IMG/VR virus record: IMGVR_UViG_2740892489_000001
Reading direction: 5' to 3' (one strand)
Length of the DNA: 49,169 bases
Source of the DNA: a virus
Taxonomy: Duplodnaviria; Heunggongvirae; Uroviricota; Caudoviricetes
Made by a program: the position numbers and the translations under genes. Positions 6,013 to 33,144 of the stretch are shown in pieces; positions within the stretch are counted from its first letter, which is position 1; the number at the start of each line of letters is the position of its first letter. Under the pieces are notes generated by a model. It was not told the DNA's origin. It saw only the letters and a program-made list of their open reading frames with translations, and did not search any database.

Positions 6013-6233
6013 TCACCATGACTCCGCCTTTACAGGTAAACCATCACGACCGAGGAAGACTTTAATCATGCGGTCAGTAATGCATGTTTTTGTGGTCAGG
6101 TTACGAATATATAGTTTTCGCTTTTTAATATTGTTTGCCGAGCAATATATGTCCGGCCTTCATGAAGAACATAATCGCCAGGAGTCACACACTGACGTGG
6201 TATTTCATCAGTTCCGAAGTGATGTGCAATCAT
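6013..6233 (-). CDS. kilR: KilR-like killing protein; frame appears broken near 6140
   Basis: [31 protein letters not shown] in one frame, ...[14 protein letters not shown] in the adjacent frame. Confidence 0.5.
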
Positions 6234-6675
6234 AATTATCTCCATTTTTACAAATGAACTTTGTTGATGCGGTGCCTGGTGCCTCCAGGTGACTGCAACC
6301 AGTTAACAATTACAGTCGGCTTTCCCACCCAAACCAATAAGGACTAACATGACTTTTAACTGTGCCACGTGCGCTTAGCCGCATTCACCGCATCACAAAA
6401 TTCACTTTAAAAAGGGCGGACATCAGCCGAACTTCAAGAAAAAAAACTGATGCCGCCAGGACTACACACAGCAATGTCGTTATTTACAACCGGAGGCGCA
6501 CTCCCACCATTTAAATTTAACAGACAAGACCGACTCTTTATGGATATCGGAAATGCGCCTTCGTGTTGTGCCCGGTTTTATTTCACCACCTCCGGGCTTC
6601 GGTGGTCTCGGCTATACCCCTACAGCGAGAGCTTGTGTTAACATTTCAATACCCTTACAGTTGAGAGTTATTGAT

Positions 6676-7164
6676 ATGTTGGATGTATTTACTCCATTGT
6701 TGAAACTTTTTGCTAACGAGCCACTCGAAAGACTTATGTATACGATTATCATTTTTGGTCTCACTCTCTGGCTGATACCGAAAGAGTTTACTGTCGCATT
6801 CAATGCTTATACTGAAATACCTTGGCTCTTTCAGATTATCGTTTTTGCCTTTTCTTTCGTGGTCGCCATTTCCTTCTCAAGATTGCGAGCACATATTCAA
6901 AAGCATTATTCATTACTACCAGAGCAACGAGTATTGCTTCGTTTATCTGAGAAAGAAATCGCTGTATTTAAAGATTTCCTTAAAACAGGAAATCTTATTA
7001 TCACTTCTCCTTGCCGTAACCCGGTTATGAAAAAATTAGAACGGAAGGGCATCATTCAACATCAGAGTGATAGCGCAAACTGTTCTTATTATCTCGTCAC
7101 CGAAAAATACTCCCATTTTATGAAGTTATTCTGGAACAGCAGGAGTAGACGTTTTAATCGTTAG
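6676..7164 (+). CDS. sieB: Superinfection exclusion protein B
   Basis: MLDVFTPLLKLFANEPLERLMYTIIIFGLTLWLIP..., hydrophobic N-terminus; ATG at 6676 inside the longer track ORF. Confidence 0.8.
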   Translation: MLDVFTPLLKLFANEPLERLMYTIIIFGLTLWLIPKEFTVAFNAYTEIPWLFQIIVFAFSFVVAISFSRLRAHIQKHYSLLPEQRVLLRLSEKEIAVFKDFLKTGNLIITSPCRNPVMKKLERKGIIQHQSDSANCSYYLVTEKYSHFMKLFWNSRSRRFNR

Positions 7165-7316
7165 CTTACTGTGTGCTTCTCCAACCATCGGCGCGCACCA
7201 GTTTCGGTTTTAAATGTTTTGCTTTTGGTATACGTCATGGCAGTGAACGTTCCATCCTGGTTGGGGAACACGCCGCACACCAGGGATTCGTTGTTGCCGA
7301 GGTCGATTTTTTGCAT
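7161..7316 (-). CDS. YdaF-like small protein (51 aa)
   Basis: Hand translation MQKIDLGNNESLVCGVFPNQDGTF...; below track length cut-off. Confidence 0.45.
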   Translation of the reverse strand: MQKIDLGNNESLVCGVFPNQDGTFTAMTYTKSKTFKTETGARRWLEKHTVS

Positions 7317-7326
7317 TTTGCGAATC

Positions 7327-7461
7327 TCACATCTTGTTGCTACGTATAGCGACTTCTGCCTGCCAGAGATCCCAGTCGTTGCTGCGTAAAGCCTGCACAG
7401 CCTGGTTGTAAGTGATACCGCAACAATCCATCAAATACTGAACTACTTCGTAATGCACCAT
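7327..7461 (-). CDS. YdaG-like small protein (44 aa)
   Basis: Hand translation MVHYEVVQYLMDCCGITYNQAVQALRSNDWDLWQAEVAIRSNKM. Confidence 0.45.
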   Translation of the reverse strand: MVHYEVVQYLMDCCGITYNQAVQALRSNDWDLWQAEVAIRSNKM

Positions 7462-7748: not shown

Positions 7749-8171
7749 TTAAGAGGCTTTTTTGTTTTTTTCTTTCGTGCTAACTCTTCGTAAATTGCAT
7801 TGTACTTCTGTTTTTTTCTCCTCAAGAGTTTTTAAAAGTTCATCTGTCTCACTGTCAGGGAGCTCGTCCAGAAGGTCAATGATGATTTTTTGTCTTGGAT
7901 TTAACTCCTGATAGAAACGTATCTGTCCACTTTCTTCTGTATCCTCTCCCAAAAGATAGGTTGGTGTTGTTCCAATGAGTGTTGCTAATTCCCTTAATTT
8001 CTCTCGGCGAGGAATTGTTTCACCATTAAACCATTTGCTAACCGCTTTTGGTGTTAATTTCATTCGACGGGCAATTTCTGCCTGCCTTCCATGTTGTTCA
8101 TAACCAGCGTTTTCACAGGCTAGCGCAAGCCTACTGGCGAACTCTTTACGCGCTTTATCTTCATGAACCAT
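7749..8171 (-). CDS. racR: Prophage repressor, XRE-type HTH (RacR-like)
   Basis: HTH-like segment AEIARRMKLTPKAVSKWFNGETIP; divergent from the Cro-like gene; C-terminus passes two A7 runs so the exact end is uncertain. Confidence 0.7.
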   Translation of the reverse strand: MVHEDKARKEFASRLALACENAGYEQHGRQAEIARRMKLTPKAVSKWFNGETIPRREKLRELATLIGTTPTYLLGEDTEESGQIRFYQELNPRQKIIIDLLDELPDSETDELLKTLEEKKTEVQCNLRRVSTKEKNKKAS

Positions 8172-9001: not shown

Positions 9002-9790
9002 ATGGCTTCAAACTGGATAAAGCTCGAAGTTATTACGCCGGATAAGCCGGAAATATTCAGGCTTGCTGAGATTCTGAATATTGATCCAGATGCCGCATTA
9101 GGGAAAGTCATTCGCTTCTGGGCATGGGCGGATCAACAAATGATAGACGGTAACGCAGAGTGTAACGCTCGAGGCGTTACAAAAAGTGCAATAGACCGTA
9201 TCACTTTTATGGCTGGTTTTGCTGATGCGTTAATTCAGGTTGGATGGCTGGTCGAAAGTGATGGAGTGCTTTCACTACCAAACTTTGAGCGTCATAACGG
9301 AAAAAGCTCGAAAAAACGGGCGGTTACAAACGAGAGAGTTACAAAAATACGCGAACTGAAGCGAAAAGGTAACGCTGCCAGCGTTACACAAACGGATCAA
9401 AAAGCGTTACCAGAGGAAGAGGAAGAGGAAGATATAAATACTGATCTCCCCCTAAATCCCCCTCGGCAAAAACGAGCGTCTAAACAATTCGAGCCGGAGG
9501 CCATTGCTCTGCCCGACTGGTTGCCAGAAACACTCTGGAATGAGTGGGTCCAGTTCAGGCAGGCATTGCGAAAACCGATTCGAACGGAGCAGGGCGCTAA
9601 CGGGGCGATACGGGAACTGGAAAAATTCCGCCAGCAGGGTTTTACCCCTGAGCAGGTGATTCGACACAGCATCGCCAATGAATACCAGGGCTTGTTCGCG
9701 CCGAAAAGTGTTCGGCCTGAGACGTTGCTCCGACAGGTTAACACTGTCTCGTTTCCGGACAGTGCGATCCCGCCAGGCTTCAGGGGGTAA
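9002..9790 (+). CDS. Replication initiation protein, O-like
   Basis: 262 aa with acidic linker EEEEEED; iteron-like repeats inside the coding region; followed by DnaC-like gene. Confidence 0.7.
   Translation: MASNWIKLEVITPDKPEIFRLAEILNIDPDAALGKVIRFWAWADQQMIDGNAECNARGVTKSAIDRITFMAGFADALIQVGWLVESDGVLSLPNFERHNGKSSKKRAVTNERVTKIRELKRKGNAASVTQTDQKALPEEEEEEDINTDLPLNPPRQKRASKQFEPEAIALPDWLPETLWNEWVQFRQALRKPIRTEQGANGAIRELEKFRQQGFTPEQVIRHSIANEYQGLFAPKSVRPETLLRQVNTVSFPDSAIPPGFRG
9149..9410. repeat. Iteron-like GTAACGC / GCGTTAC repeats (candidate ori)
   Basis: GTAACGC at 9150 and 9162, GCGTTAC at 9174 and 9404, palindrome GTAACGCTGCCAGCGTTAC at 9369-9387; similar palindrome at 8970-8988. Confidence 0.6.
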
Positions 9791-11731: not shown

Positions 11732-11891
11732 GCCAAATTAATAATCGGAACTTGGTGAAGTGAAAGAGAAAGCATAACCCAAATCTGAATAATTAAATTC
11801 AGCACTGTGAATAAAATAGAGTCCTTAACCGGAGGAATTCCTGCACTCTCAAATCATCAGGAGGCCGCCCGAAAAGGCGGTGGAGATAATA

Positions 11892-12410
11892 ATGGAAATA
11901 ACTAAAGAACGATTATTGGAAATAGCAAATCTTAGTGATGGGGCATTAAGTGATGGGAGAATTATTTCTCCTGATGCTTATGAATCAGTTACAAGTATAG
12001 AAATAATAACGATGGCTAGGATGCTTCTTGCGCGATTCAAAAAAGAATATAAAAAACAGGTAGATAGCAATGCTAATATATATGATATTTTGGACGGTTG
12101 GGGAGCCTGGGCTGTAGCTGAAAATAGTTCTATTGATTGGCAGGAAATAGCTGATAAATATAAAAATGTTGTTCCTCATGGTAAAAAATCACGTCGTCAG
12201 TGCAGCAATGATGAAGGGGGTATAATTGATACCTGCATGTTGAGGCTTAAACAATATAAGATAGATGACTATGAGTTAATTATCGCTCATTTTGTTATGG
12301 GAGTTTCATTGCGTTGTTTAGCTAAGATAAACGAATGTTCAGATGGTAAAATAAGGAAAAAAATGCAAATGGCAATGGGATTTATTGCAGGTTGTATCTA
12401 TTACCGTTGA
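11892..12410 (+). CDS. Q-antiterminator-like protein (QuuD/Q-933W type) with N-terminal extension; AT-rich
   Basis: DGWGAWA...KSRRQC...IIDTCMLRLK...FVMGVSLRCL...CSDGKIRKKMQ resembles the Q family signature as recalled; GGAG 6 nt before ATG 11892. Confidence 0.55.
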   Translation: MEITKERLLEIANLSDGALSDGRIISPDAYESVTSIEIITMARMLLARFKKEYKKQVDSNANIYDILDGWGAWAVAENSSIDWQEIADKYKNVVPHGKKSRRQCSNDEGGIIDTCMLRLKQYKIDDYELIIAHFVMGVSLRCLAKINECSDGKIRKKMQMAMGFIAGCIYYR

Positions 12411-12416
12411 TTTTTT

Positions 12417-12437
12417 AAGGCGAGTTTCTCTCGCCTT
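12417..12437. other. Perfect 8-bp stem-loop between convergent genes (possible terminator)
   Basis: AAGGCGAG-TTTCT-CTCGCCTT, T6 on the 5' side only; not a canonical hairpin-plus-U-tract in either direction. Confidence 0.4.
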
Positions 12438-12440
12438 AAA

Positions 12441-13924
12441 TTAACTACAGTAACTATTGATTAAGTGAGAACTGAGCCAAGAGGTAATTGCATTCGTAGC
12501 ATGTTCATCAAGCATTGAGAATCCTAATATGATCATTATAAATGAAATCAGCAAAGTCAGAATCACAACGAATGTGGCTATAATCTGATAAGCTTTGTAT
12601 GCTTCTCTTAATGGTGTGACTGCAAGATTCTCATAGTCAGTATCATCAAGAAAACCATATAGTTTATCTCTCCAGACTAGCCTAGTATTATCAAGTATCT
12701 TAAAGTAATTTTTATTTATGAAGAGAGTTGTAACCTGAGATATAAAAATATATATAGATAACGCGAAGAACATATATGGGAATATGTTATTGGTTATATT
12801 AATCTTTGATGCGTCTAGCGCATATTTTATTGCAAATAGACTTATAACCAGAGCCAGATCTTTCCAAAGAGCGGATGTGATGTCTTTAGACTGACTTATT
12901 ATTTTTTGCGTGTCTTCAGCTAAGGTTTTCCTTAGATCGGACAGAGATTTAATAGTCTCTCTGCTGCTAGCGCGAATGTGGGCCTTATATAGTAATTTTG
13001 CTGACTCAAAGGCCATAGGGAGTTTTTTTTGGTAAACCCTCACAGAAGGATACATACTCTGGCCATTCTCGTGCTAACTCACTTGTGAAGAAAGTATGTT
13101 TGAGTTCAATCTCATTGCCCTCAATAAAGATCCAGTTTATTACAGTTTGTAAAACTGAATAGTCGGAAAGCAGAATGTCTGGATCTCCATAAATTAATTT
13201 TTTTGGTGGCTTTCCAGTTAAACAAATTGATTTCTTTTCATCTGCTAATAATTCATTAACGAGAGTGCGACAAAGCATATTGCAGGAAACTTGTAACCAT
13301 TTTTTGAAAAAGTTGTCCTCTGCCTCAGGCATTTTATAAAGTACCCAAGGAGCTATATCAGATGCAGGCATGAACTCACTAGAATAGAATTTAACGTAGC
13401 TCTGTAAATTGATTGAAGTTCGTACGGTTTCATTAGATTCAATTTTTTTCTGGAGCATGGTTCCATGGCTCAACAGAATATCCTAAAGTTTCAAATCCAT
13501 GTTTCAAACCGAGAATATTCACTTTATTGGTTATTGATACTAAATCATCATTGTGTAGAAAAACATTCCACCCTTCGAGCGTAAAAATATACCTGTTATT
13601 TTCGAATGCAATGCATTTTAGCGTAATGTTAAGTTTATCACCTTCACTGCATGACGATGGTTTTACTTCATCATTACAGTCATCTTTAACAGTAATTTCA
13701 ATCCAATTTGGTACGTTTTCGTAAACGTACTGCCAAAGAATGAGTGCATCTTTGTCCATTTTGGCAGAAATTAGAACGCGCGCAGAATCATTTTTTATTG
13801 ATTCTGATGCCAAAAATTCAGGGTCTTTCCTTGACGCCTGTATAGACTCATCGATTTTTTGAAGTATCGATGTCATCAGTAATAATCCTCGCAGTAGTAA
13901 CAATAATTTGTTTTCGCCCATCAT
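12441..13924 (-). CDS. Hypothetical protein with multi-pass membrane C-terminus; three track ORFs joined across homopolymer indels
   Basis: ORFs 13439..13924, 13006..13473 and 12441..13055 become one frame if T7 13443-13449 and T8 13023-13030 are each one base shorter; hydrophobic helices in last ~200 aa. Confidence 0.5.
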
Positions 13925-14907
13925 CTAAGTTTCTTATTTCTGGACGGTCATCTTCATTATAACTAATTACTACACTTTCTGCAGTTTCAATTTTTCGTCT
14001 TGGTGGTTTATGAATGCCATCTGCTTTTATAGTAAAGGATTCGCCTTCAATACCAGCATTTTTTGTTTGAGTTTTGAATGTGTTGAGAATTGGTGATTTT
14101 TCATCTAACGGCCCAAAAATGCTGGTCAATAACGGAGAAGCATCTTCAGGATTATATTCGAAATCAGCTCTGCTTAAAACTTCATATATTTTATTTACGC
14201 CGCTTTTTTGAATTGACTCTGGCAATAATTCTTTATGCCTTTTGAAGGTTATTTTCAGCGCATCAATAAGCTTATTGCAAAGTTCAATTTCAGAGTTGAC
14301 TCTTTTAACATTTAAGAAGCCTTTAAAATATCCTGAAATATTGGTTCTTTTACTCCTGTCTTTTACAATAACTTTCCCGCCTTTCCCACTTGGATCAAGT
14401 TGAATTAACGCTATTTTTTTGCATTGCCTCAGCTTTTTTTACGAAAGTTTCATGAAATCTTTCTAAAGTAGGCATTTGTTCTTCAGATAACTTTTCGTCA
14501 AGAACATAACGAACCACATCTTCATTATCGTATTTTATAATTGCATAGAATTTTTCCTTATCTGAAACCAATTCAAATAAGAAAAAGCATCCCATACTCG
14601 TGTTACCGCTAGAATGGTGTGACTGAAAATCACTGGCCAGTAGCTTCGATTGTTCTGTAAAACAATTAGCTTCAGCATCTGCTTTATCTCTAATGATACG
14701 CAGGATTCTTTCGGTATTTGAATTCTCCAGAAAAGTGAAAAGATTTCCTTTCAGTGAAGATTTGATACGTTCAAGAAAAAAATCCACATGCTGAACTGGT
14801 TTTATTTCTTTGAGAAGTGTCGGTGCTTCAAGATTCTTACCTACAACGTGAAAGATCATTTTATTAATGACTAAATTTTGTACGTCTTGTTCAGAAAGGA
14901 AACTCAT
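13848..14907 (-). CDS. NdpA/YejK-like (nucleoid-associated protein family) candidate; two track ORFs joined
   Basis: ORFs 14395..14907 and 13848..14225 fuse if T7 14414-14420 or 14434-14440 is one base shorter; motifs MIFHVV, GCFFLFELV...YAIIKYD, IQLDPSGKGGKVIVKDRSK recall the YejK family; GGAG before start. Confidence 0.45.
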
Positions 14908-14948
14908 CCTGACTCCATAATCAAGCAGATTAGAACTATGACTAGTCT

Positions 14949-14977
14949 AGTATATGCATCTTTTGGTGCGTACGCAA
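14949..14977 (-). promoter_or_regulatory. Candidate sigma70 promoter for the minus-strand island genes
   Basis: On minus strand TTGCGT-17 nt-TATACT, about 50 nt upstream of start 14907. Confidence 0.35.
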
Positions 14978-14999
14978 AAGTTCTTAAACTCAAAATGTT

Positions 15000-15236
15000 A
15001 TCGCGGATAGATCTTTGTAGAGTCAGTGATTGGCGCAGGTAGGTGGTAACAGCAGACAAATAGCTGCGGATACTTGAGGCTATCTGCCTCGGGCATGAAC
15101 ATCAAAGGCAGATAGAGAAAAGCCCCAGTTAACATTACGCATCCGGCAAGACGCTTAACATTAATCTGAGGCCAATTTCATGCTTTGCACATGTAGGTTA
15201 GCCTCTTACGTGCCGAAAGGCAAGGAGAAGCAGGCT
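15000..15236. promoter_or_regulatory. hok leader / putative sok antisense region
   Basis: Structured GC-rich leader typical of hok mRNAs upstream of the hok ATG. Confidence 0.4.
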
Positions 15237-15392
15237 ATGAAGCAGCAAAAGGCGATGTTAGTCGCCCTGATCGTCATCTGTTTAACCGTTATAGTGACGG
15301 TACTGGTAACGAGGAAAGACCTCTGCGAGGTACGAATCCGAACCGACCAGACGGAGGTCGCTGTCTTCACAGCTTACGAACTTGGGGAGTAA
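15237..15392 (+). CDS. hok: Hok/Gef-family type I toxin
   Basis: MKQQKAMLVALIVICLTVIVTVLVTRKDLCEVRIRTDQTEVAVFTAYELGE; in-frame upstream extension from 15180 (mok-like). Confidence 0.85.
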   Translation: MKQQKAMLVALIVICLTVIVTVLVTRKDLCEVRIRTDQTEVAVFTAYELGE

Positions 15393-17639: not shown

Positions 17640-17715
<76 letters not shown>

Positions 17716-17718
17716 TAT

Positions 17719-17793
<75 letters not shown>

Positions 17794-23386: not shown

Positions 23387-24486
23387 ATGAGCAGACCGGA
23401 CTGGGGGGCGTTGCAGCAGGAGTATATTGCTGAATACACCCGCTCCGGTATATCTCCGGTGGCATGGTGTGAAGCAAGGGGACTGAACTACGCAACAGCC
23501 CGTCGTTACATCAAAAAAAACTCCGAAAAATGCGCAGAAAGAAAATGCGCAAAACTGCGCAAAAAAAGTGCGCGAAAAAAAAACTGCGCAGACTGCGCAA
23601 AGGCAGAACGGAAAATCTCAGAAAAAAAAAGGCTGTATCCGATGCACTCCTGATTGAGGGGGACACGGAAGAAATTTCGTTCTGCCCCGATGAATTCGGT
23701 ATTTCTGACCAGCAGGCAAAATTCGCCATGTTGGTTGCTCAGGGGAAAAAGCCGACAGAGGCATACCGACTGGCTGGTTATGAGGGGCAAGGTGCGACAG
23801 CTAACAGCAACGCCAGCCGTATGCTTAGAAATGCCAGGGTTTATCGTGCTATCAGCTACTTCCGCAATCAGTACCAGAAACGCTATACCGCAGACCTGGA
23901 TTTACTGGTGAGCCAGTTGATGGCCATTGTCCAGGCCGACCCCAATCAGTTGGCACAATTTCGCCGTGTTAACTGCCGTTATTGCTGGGGCGAGAATCAT
24001 CTCTACCAGTGGCGTGATATTGCAGAATTCGATAAGGCTGCGGCACAGGCCTCCAGAGATGGTAAACCCGAGCCGGAATATGGAGGCCTCGGCTTTGTTG
24101 ATAACGCCATACCCAATCCGGATTGCCCGAAGTGCTGCGGTGAGGGAACGGGACAGCTTTATATGGCTGATACCACACTGCTTGATGGGGATGCGCGGCA
24201 ATTATATGCAGGGTCAAAGCTCGGAAAATACGGTGTTGAGATCCTGCTGGAGGATAAGGCTGCCGCCCGGCGTGAATTGTTGCGTTTGCTTTCTGCTGGC
24301 GGGGCATTATGTGCAGATAAACGGCTACAGGAACTGGAAATTGAACGGCGCAGAATAGAAAACCAGAAGCTGCGCAAAGAGATCGAAACGGTGGAGGATA
24401 ATGAACATCCCCAGCCTGTGGCGATCAATATTAATGTGGTTGATGCCAGATTAAGGAGTGATGAAGATGATCTCTCCGACGCTTAA
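23387..24486 (+). CDS. Terminase small subunit; frame ambiguous through A-run repeat region 23513-23630
   Basis: N-terminal ORF 23387..23653 and ORF 23530..24486 (AKFAMLVAQGKKPTEAYRLAGY...ANSNASRMLRNARV) separated only by A8/A7/A9 runs. Confidence 0.6.
23513..23630. repeat. Array of six TGCGC(A/G) hexamers interleaved with A6-A9 tracts
   Basis: TGCGCA at 23531, 23546, 23556, 23585, 23594 and TGCGCG at 23569; A runs at 23513, 23561, 23575, 23622. Confidence 0.5.
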
Positions 24487-32178: not shown

Positions 32179-33144
32179 GTGAGTTCAGGTGCAAAGGTTA
32201 TCTCGGCATTTATCCGGGAGACGGTTGCAGGCACTACGCCAGCAAGTGGTGACTGGAGTTTATTAAAACGCACAAGCTGGGGAGTAAAACCCACCCAGAA
32301 TAAAGGCGAAAATAATGAGATTGGTGGCTCCCGGATGGCTCAGGGGGCGACGCCTGGCACTGTGGATGTCGGCGGTGATGTTGGTACCAAATTTCGCTGG
32401 GGTCAACATGATGATTTTCTTGCATCCTGTTTCGGCGCGGAATGGTCAGGCGATTCTCTGACAATGGGGAATGAGCGAATAACATTTTCTCTGGCGACCT
32501 ATGCGTCCGATGTCGGAATTGCCTCTGTCGTCAGAGGAGCGCAGGTTGGCTCATGGAAAATGCAGATCCCTAACGACGGCGATATTACAGCGACCGTAAC
32601 CTTTGCCGGACTGGACTGGGAATCAAAGGCCGATGATACGAATTTTATCAAAGGCGAACCTGTGGATAGTGCAGGAAAGCTACGTTATTCGTTTAAGGAG
32701 GTTTCAGCAGTAAGCCTGAATGGTGTTGCCGGAGGTAACGGTTTTTGTATCGACAGTTTTGATATTCAGTTCGATAACAAACTCCAGACACAGCGTTGTA
32801 TCGGGACTGGCTCGCCTTATGCAGGAGCAAATATTCCGACTACTTTTACACCGTCCGGTACGGTGACGCTTTCATGGTCTAAAGCCGCGTGGGAAATCTG
32901 GAGTAAAACACTGACTGGAGAAACAGTTCCGTTCAGCTTCACGCTTTCGAATGGAGAGGGGGCATACACTTTCAGTTTCCCGAAGGTTCAGGTGTCAGGT
33001 GAATGGCCTGATGGGGGTAATAGCGACATTATCCAGGTTCAATTGAGCATTACCGCAGCAGATGAAGCACCTACGATAACCAGAAAAAAAAAAAATTCCC
33101 CGGCTGCCGTGATCGCAAAAGCCAGTGCTGAGGCGATTAGTTGA
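32179..33144 (+). CDS. Major tail (tube) protein candidate; C-terminus passes an A12 run
   Basis: 321 aa directly upstream of the G/G-T chaperone pair and tape measure; A12 at 33084-33095 makes the true C-terminus uncertain. Confidence 0.55.
   Translation: MSSGAKVISAFIRETVAGTTPASGDWSLLKRTSWGVKPTQNKGENNEIGGSRMAQGATPGTVDVGGDVGTKFRWGQHDDFLASCFGAEWSGDSLTMGNERITFSLATYASDVGIASVVRGAQVGSWKMQIPNDGDITATVTFAGLDWESKADDTNFIKGEPVDSAGKLRYSFKEVSAVSLNGVAGGNGFCIDSFDIQFDNKLQTQRCIGTGSPYAGANIPTTFTPSGTVTLSWSKAAWEIWSKTLTGETVPFSFTLSNGEGAYTFSFPKVQVSGEWPDGGNSDIIQVQLSITAADEAPTITRKKKNSPAAVIAKASAEAIS

Follow-up and report, generated by a model that had tools for sequence, protein, structure and literature searches.

The window analysed here, a DNA stretch of 49,169 nucleotides, probably carries a translationally coupled two-gene anti-phage cassette of type II PANGU architecture, inserted as an AT-rich moron into a Rac-type lambdoid prophage. 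The first gene encodes a YejK-like nucleoid-associated protein and the second a membrane protein. In annotation, these two intact genes should replace the five fragments into which the window sequence divides the locus. That the cassette serves in defence is considered quite likely, and for the membrane protein WP_001586996.1, hitherto a "hypothetical protein", the provisional role of membrane effector in a nucleoid-protein-sensing defence is suggested. The finding is real, and a prophage defence of an ordinary sort is the probable function of the cassette. No new principle is involved, since the 2026 literature already contains both the class and the prediction for this exact nucleoid protein.

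Three overlapping minus-strand ORFs, which a preliminary description made from the sequence had joined to one frame by shortening two homopolymers, were found as described (Table 1), and the T8 and T7 runs (plus strand) named there are located exactly at the frame changes. Megablast of positions 12300-15100 against 5,426 complete E. coli genomes showed the whole segment to be covered in 29 genomes with 99.7-99.9% identity, nearly all of them having 2,798 bases compared to 2,801 in the window. The three fragments are one gene, the intact form of which is present in the 29 complete genomes; the exact intact effector is encoded on 587 contigs and the exact intact nucleoid protein on 815. Over the same segment, the window differs from Ecol_316 at three positions only, each with one extra T (13023, 13443 and 14414). 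In the RefSeq annotation of Ecol_316, WP_001586996.1 is a single hypothetical protein of 477 amino acids and WP_001586997.1 a "nucleoid-associated protein" of 352 amino acids. The length of about 490 amino acids proposed before has to be corrected to 477, as the start is an internal methionine (MTSILQKID..., window position 13876), which corresponds to residue 1 in homologues across the effector family. The third insertion, absent from the preliminary description, breaks the upstream DNA-binding gene as well.

Table 1. Features of the cassette and its immediate surroundings (positions in the window).
Feature	Position	Strand	Remarks
Q-family antiterminator gene	11880-12410	+	convergent with cassette; AT-rich too, about 35% GC
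Inverted repeat, 8-bp, G+C-rich	12417-12437		AAGGCGAG-N5-CTCGCCTT; between convergent effector and Q-family genes; read from sequence
ORF fragment, 204 aa	12441-13055	-	
Membrane-effector gene	12441-13876	-	WP_001586996.1, 477 aa, after removal of two extra T; Pag2B-like
ORF fragment, 155 aa	13006-13473	-	
T8 run (A8 on coding strand)	13023-13030		T7 in reference genomes; second apparent frameshift of effector gene
ORF fragment, 161 aa	13439-13924	-	
T7 run (A7 on coding strand)	13443-13449		T6 in reference genomes; first apparent frameshift of effector gene
Nucleoid-associated protein gene	13848-14907	-	WP_001586997.1, 352 aa, after removal of one extra T; Pag2A-like
T7 run	14414-14420		T6 in reference genomes; divides nucleoid-protein gene into pieces of 170 and 125 aa
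sok RNA (hok/sok type I toxin-antitoxin)	15068-15242	+	Rfam RF01794, 99 bits
Hok/Gef ORF	15180-15392	+	shorter CDS of 156 nt inside in RefSeq annotation of Ecol_316

The two genes are tightly linked. In E. coli, the 3' end of the nucleoid-protein gene overlaps the effector start by 29 nt. Without exception, the effector gene of the 73 species-representative loci, and of every metagenomic locus inspected, is directly preceded by an NA37-family gene in the same orientation; the two genes overlap in 72 of the 73. These loci are distributed over Enterobacterales, Pseudomonas, Rhizobiales, Sphingomonadales, Methylococcales and Burkholderiales, with one representative in Terriglobus. Furthermore, both proteins co-diverge (r = 0.95 for the pairwise identities of 2,415 pairs). 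Judged by gene order and co-divergence, the nucleoid-protein and effector genes form one two-gene unit.

The upstream protein is assigned to the NA37 family (PF04245) with 48.3 bits compared to a cut-off of 24.6 (E 1.2e-12, aa 18-335). When the model of an 85%-identical homologue was compared to the PDB with Foldseek, E. coli YejK (9BE2) was the sole significant match (E 2.9e-8, probability 1.0, full length). By sequence, no match to the PDB was obtained for the nucleoid-protein family, even with the family profile. A weak match of this profile to a phage integrase N-terminal domain (E 0.004) was disregarded. Although the window protein passes the NA37 gathering score and shares the fold with E. 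coli YejK (NdpA), it is highly divergent from the latter (15% identity) and, in contrast to it, has its gene on mobile DNA, invariably coupled to that of a membrane protein. This location and the constant coupling argue against a housekeeping function.

In the membrane protein, aa 1-275 form an acidic alpha/beta N-domain, which is followed by a basic helical region at aa 276-345 and by a pair of transmembrane helices at aa 364-387 and 429-453. About 100 full-length relatives with 27-85% identity were found in a database clustered at 90%, none of them named and none with Pfam domains. With the family profile, 673 clusters at 50% identity were retrieved from 1.84 billion representatives, 380 of them at E <= 1e-30; nearly all of the 673 are 445-530 aa long and match end to end. 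With full-length homologues in this number of clusters, the reconstructed frame is far beyond chance. Of the several long hydrophobic segments described before for the C-terminal part, the two quoted explicitly are strong in the E. coli protein (Kyte-Doolittle), and a third at about aa 337-355 is weaker and amphipathic, so that "multi-pass" is to be understood as two transmembrane helices. The two segments of the hydropathy profile match long helices in the AF2 model of an 85%-identical homologue. This model is confident (pLDDT 89.1), with an alpha/beta domain at 1-270, long helices at 277-355, a helical hairpin (364-404 and 411-454) and a terminal helix. Two hydrophobic segments are present in 82 of 94 aligned family members.

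The first 275 residues are acidic in all 94 aligned members (net charge -4 to -22, mean -12.8, median pI 4.9); in the E. coli protein, the acidity is moderate with a net charge of -14 over 275 aa and a pI of 4.8. Residues 276-345 are basic across the aligned family. The best-conserved block comprises aa 251-345 (column identity about 0.7) with the motif ELKHTF..ELAREWP...LYKAHIR...DLRK...LWKD, and W248, E257, H260, E266, R269, W271, R315, W337 and D339 are among the invariant residues. Conservation therefore peaks in the presumably cytoplasmic juxtamembrane region and not in the transmembrane helices. No relative of the N-domain was found among solved structures, a search of the effector family against the PDB by sequence was empty, and scans with PADLOC, PHROGs and NCBIfam gave nothing usable. 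Two Pfam matches were attributed to chance similarity of hydrophobic helices and discarded, namely Saf_2TM, the SAVED-fused 2TM effector (14 bits with a cut-off of 29.5, in one of the 94 members), and cytochrome b561.

PANGU systems were recently described as two-gene operons of YejK-like nucleoid proteins with effectors (bioRxiv 10.64898/2026.04.06.716658, Li et al., April 2026). In type II PANGU, found in an E. coli strain, Pag2A is encoded together with Pag2B, which combines an acidic N-terminal "DNA-mimicking" domain with a C-terminal transmembrane domain. According to the same preprint (bioRxiv 10.64898/2026.04.06.716658), type II PANGU lowers T4 plaquing by 3-4 logs, for which both genes are required, and behaves as an abortive-infection system with growth arrest at high MOI. 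The system is non-toxic by itself, and neither gene alone is toxic in PANGU systems. T4 escapes via mutations in denA (EndoII), Pag2A-GFP departs from the nucleoid upon infection, and the isolated Pag2B N-domain binds Pag2A with a KD of 19 nM. How Pag2A engages and activates Pag2B, and how Pag2B acts, is left open in the preprint (bioRxiv 10.64898/2026.04.06.716658).

The window cassette appears to match type II PANGU in architecture; the likeness refers to the published description rather than to PANGU-Ecu sequences. Here too, a YejK-like nucleoid protein is encoded first in a bicistronic operon. The core gene is identified as YejK-like (NA37) by the PF04245 and 9BE2 matches, and the partner gene lies less than 40 bp away, given the 29-nt overlap and the overlapping genes in 72 of 73 loci. 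The C-terminal transmembrane domain is seen both in the Kyte-Doolittle segments and in the AF2 helices 364-404 and 411-454, and the N-terminal domain is acidic throughout the family (94/94), yet only moderately so. Linkage to known defence genes was found in the form of Septu, DRT, SoFic and Abi neighbours, as recorded in a descriptive survey. Both type II PANGU and the window pair come from E. coli and both are spread across phyla, though the family described here is mostly found in Pseudomonadota. Moreover, the closest relatives of the window pair are prophage morons, mostly next to Q, and not residents of chromosomal defence islands. The preliminary description had regarded a membrane effector downstream of a DNA-binding protein as a common abortive-infection arrangement. 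This was borne out by the two-helix C-terminus, by the overlap with a gene of the NA37/YejK family and by the correspondence of the arrangement to a published abortive-infection defence.

By analogy to type II PANGU, the nucleoid protein would be sequestered on the chromosome in uninfected cells and freed when a phage degrades the host DNA. The freed protein would then bind to the acidic cytoplasmic N-domain of the 477-aa inner-membrane protein, the proposed docking site. Binding might be relayed via the conserved juxtamembrane helices to the transmembrane hairpin. This putative killing module would oligomerise or otherwise harm the membrane, and the resulting damage or depolarisation would abort the infection. 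This study established that the genes are intact elsewhere, that they are paired, which folds and domains they encode and that their context is mobile or defence-linked; the steps of sensing, binding and killing are taken from the literature. The chances of the mechanism holding in full are judged to be about even. If it does, the cassette would add a prophage-borne family to a new class in which a nucleoid protein reports the destruction of the host genome. The confidently modelled effector may also be a place to study how binding of the nucleoid protein is relayed to the membrane, the step left open in the preprint.

Kiwa is a two-gene defence composed of the membrane protein KwaA and the DNA-binding protein KwaB. 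The window pair, a translationally coupled combination of a membrane and a DNA-binding protein, has the same architecture and could work in a Kiwa-like manner, opposite in direction to the mechanism proposed above. The membrane protein would keep the nucleoid-like protein inactive, sense for example phage attachment or DNA injection at the envelope and then release its partner onto phage DNA, where replication or late transcription would be blocked; death of the cell would be unnecessary. The conservation maximum in the cytoplasmic juxtamembrane region rather than in the transmembrane helices is compatible with this order of events, as is the latitude the preprint leaves for the engagement of Pag2B by Pag2A. 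Nevertheless, neither protein matched KwaA, KwaB or any other PADLOC model, with no family of PADLOC-DB v2 (Kiwa models included) retrieved for either of them at E <= 1. In comparison to Kiwa, the gene order is reversed and the window membrane protein is much larger, with a predicted cytoplasmic part of 345 aa. The denA escape, the exit from the nucleoid and the arrest at high MOI reported for type II PANGU point in the opposite direction, an argument that counts only if both belong to the same family. A Kiwa-like function with the membrane protein as sensor is regarded as unlikely, and sensing by the nucleoid protein is preferred; in this proposed model for the window pair, the roles of sensor and effector are swapped relative to Kiwa.

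A further E. coli pair, DS-1 (working ID D390: WP_000355468.1 and WP_000150292.1), was validated as anti-phage in the DefensePredictor study (Science 2026, PMC13092281), in which WP_001586997.1, the nucleoid protein of the window cassette, was scored as a predicted defence gene with mean log-odds of 8.42. DS-1 resembles the window pair in that a YejK-domain protein is followed by a protein of roughly 400 aa with an acidic N-terminal part and a hydrophobic C-terminus. Its nucleoid protein has an extra N-terminal zinc-ribbon, unlike the window protein. Homology between the pairs was not detectable with hhalign (probabilities of 0.2% and 0.3% for nucleoid protein and partner, respectively), and DS-1 as a member of the same family was rejected on this basis in favour of an analogous pairing. 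Since DS-1 is not detectably homologous to the window pair, such combinations of nucleoid and membrane proteins appear, at the level of sequence, to have arisen more than once and need not have a common mechanism. It is conceivable, albeit doubtful, that the family represents a third, independently evolved nucleoid-protein/membrane-effector pairing distinct from PANGU-Ecu and DS-1. Its 275-aa N-domain would then have a fold without solved relative, the invariant block aa 251-345 would act as a switch by which binding of the nucleoid protein opens a two-helix membrane pore, and the cassette, placed mostly beside Q in lambdoid prophages, would guard lysogens against phages degrading host DNA.

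The window contains a complete Rac-type prophage (intR, recET, kilR, sieB, ydaT, ... trkG, tail genes) adjoining sitABCD. Relative to the phage genes, the cassette occupies the other strand; it is flanked by the Q-family antiterminator gene and a hok/sok module and has a GC content of 33-36% compared to about 50% around it. Its three closest homologues, with 81%, 62% and 44% identity, all come from lambdoid prophages, and those with 62% and 44% identity directly adjoin Q. In prophages of Serratia and of metagenomic origin (L086, L088), the cassette likewise has a Phage_antitermQ gene as its direct neighbour. Possibly, Q and the cassette are mobilised jointly as a single module. The inverted repeat located between the effector and Q-family genes may form a shared transcript end for both. 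Neither strand of this repeat conforms to the consensus of an intrinsic terminator, and it was absent from the output of the terminator scan; promoter and terminator scans gave nothing above shuffled expectation.

More distant homologues are located next to integrases, a giant NERD-helicase gene or a ThiF/multi-ubiquitin cluster. Outside prophages, the cassette was also found as an immediate neighbour of Septu, DRT, NERD-helicase and Abi genes. In a survey of the ORFs directly adjoining the pair (129 in 73 species), which considered strong PADLOC or Pfam matches and is descriptive, without a matched control, PtuA (Septu) was found five times, PtuB and NERD+UvrD four times each, and PDC-S24, DRT and SoFic three times each. 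AbiJ and Abi_C were matched twice each and phage integrases seven times. Carriers of the pair also include five IMG/VR contigs and an isolated temperate phage, Thiobacimonas phage vB_ThpS-P1, in which the pair adjoins a cI/Cro gene.

The frequent position of the cassette next to integrases or the Q antiterminator would also suit a module without defence function, in which a xenogeneic nucleoid protein regulates the prophage or island and the membrane partner tethers or titrates it. Paralogues of NA37 on mobile elements can regulate transfer (PMC8565334), and NdpA2 has a regulatory function of this type for ICE PAPI-1. Against a purely regulatory function stand the occurrence away from prophages, beside Septu, DRT, NERD-helicase and Abi genes, and the strict pairing with a membrane protein. 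The high defence odds given to the nucleoid protein by DefensePredictor and the validation of analogous pairs as defence systems also speak against it, and a regulatory module is considered quite improbable. Defence remains the preferred function.

Several neighbouring genes of the homologous pairs are noteworthy in their own right. In Sphingomonas (L008, L009 and L010, 10000-15100), genes for RNase_T, Multi_ubiq and DUF6791-ThiF (E1-like) adjoin the pair, and this cluster looks like a ubiquitin-like conjugation defence module. In Methylobacterium (L006 and L007, 137-6735), a protein of 1,703 aa with NERD and superfamily-1 helicase domains and a faint kinase match is encoded divergently from the pair, and the helicase gene is followed by that of a 496-aa protein without domains. 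The PADLOC candidate model "NERD+UvrD" fits neighbours of the NERD-helicase type in four species. The early region of the prophage carrying the 62%-identical cassette (L086, 15968-18315) encodes a reverse transcriptase (RVT_1, 428 aa) and an 8xMP protein, which probably form another prophage-borne defence pair. In the same prophage, the cassette and a Hok/Gef gene are separated by about 3 kb. For H30, a genome without the cassette, alternative cargo was considered and rejected, as an IS1 deletion was found instead. In L085 (E. coli E01, 6100-7400), IS1A deleted the Rac-type prophage from just past Q to the tail-fibre gene, the cassette included.

The apparent frameshifts follow a pattern extending over the window. 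In 14.8 kb around the locus, 16 indels relative to Ecol_316 were counted, every one in A/T homopolymers, compared to five substitutions. Over the entire 49-kb window, about 34 homopolymer indels were found, almost all of them +1 in the window. An additional base was present in 14 of 22 A/T runs of length 7, in 7 of 10 of length 8 and in all four of length 9, and the excess affects coding and non-coding DNA alike. Within positions 1-42244, such over-calls are located for example at 775, 5347, 5586, 6439, 7763-7811, 11339, 16909, 16944, 17834, 18176, 18201, 20030, 22498, 23513-23622, 25921, 33084-33086, 37074 and 37574. The A12 run at about 33084 is longer by three bases than in Ecol_316. As A/T runs of seven or more bases are over-called throughout, many other ORFs of the window will look frameshifted for technical reasons.

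If the frameshifts were real, slips in homopolymer tracts would have disrupted both genes, leaving the cassette decayed or in an off phase. Slippage does occur naturally in AT-rich homopolymers, and truncated forms of the cassette proteins do occur in a few other assemblies (H17, H23 and cluster members of 250-330 aa). On the other hand, the same +1 is seen at most long A/T runs of the window, this part of the prophage has few substitutions, and three independent inactivating slips in 2.5 kb accompanied by about 30 others in the same direction indicate the signature of a base-calling error. Genuine inactivation is thus very unlikely, and from the sequence comparison the frameshifts in both genes are almost certainly homopolymer over-calls of the assembly. 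The cassette itself is with high confidence intact in the organism. One site runs against this trend. At position 9310, the window has A6 and an intact ORF of 262 aa (9002-9790, plus strand), and Ecol_316 and E01 have A7 with the gene annotated as "frameshifted". This difference is either an error of the reference genomes or a real polymorphism.

Upstream of the nucleoid-protein gene, the hok/sok module (15068-15392) is located at a distance of about 160 bp in divergent orientation. An overlapping two-gene operon on mobile DNA that encodes a protein with a small membrane domain and adjoins hok/sok could itself be taken for a toxin-antitoxin system, with the membrane protein as constitutive toxin and the nucleoid-like protein as antitoxin, but this is scarcely credible given that the analogous PANGU genes are non-toxic singly, that the nucleoid protein is the activator there and that the effector, a large protein of 477 aa, possesses a regulatory N-domain which is conserved. 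Further along the prophage, two tRNA genes (Thr and Gly according to the reference annotation) are located at 17640-17790 on the plus strand, between the nin-like region and the lysis genes.
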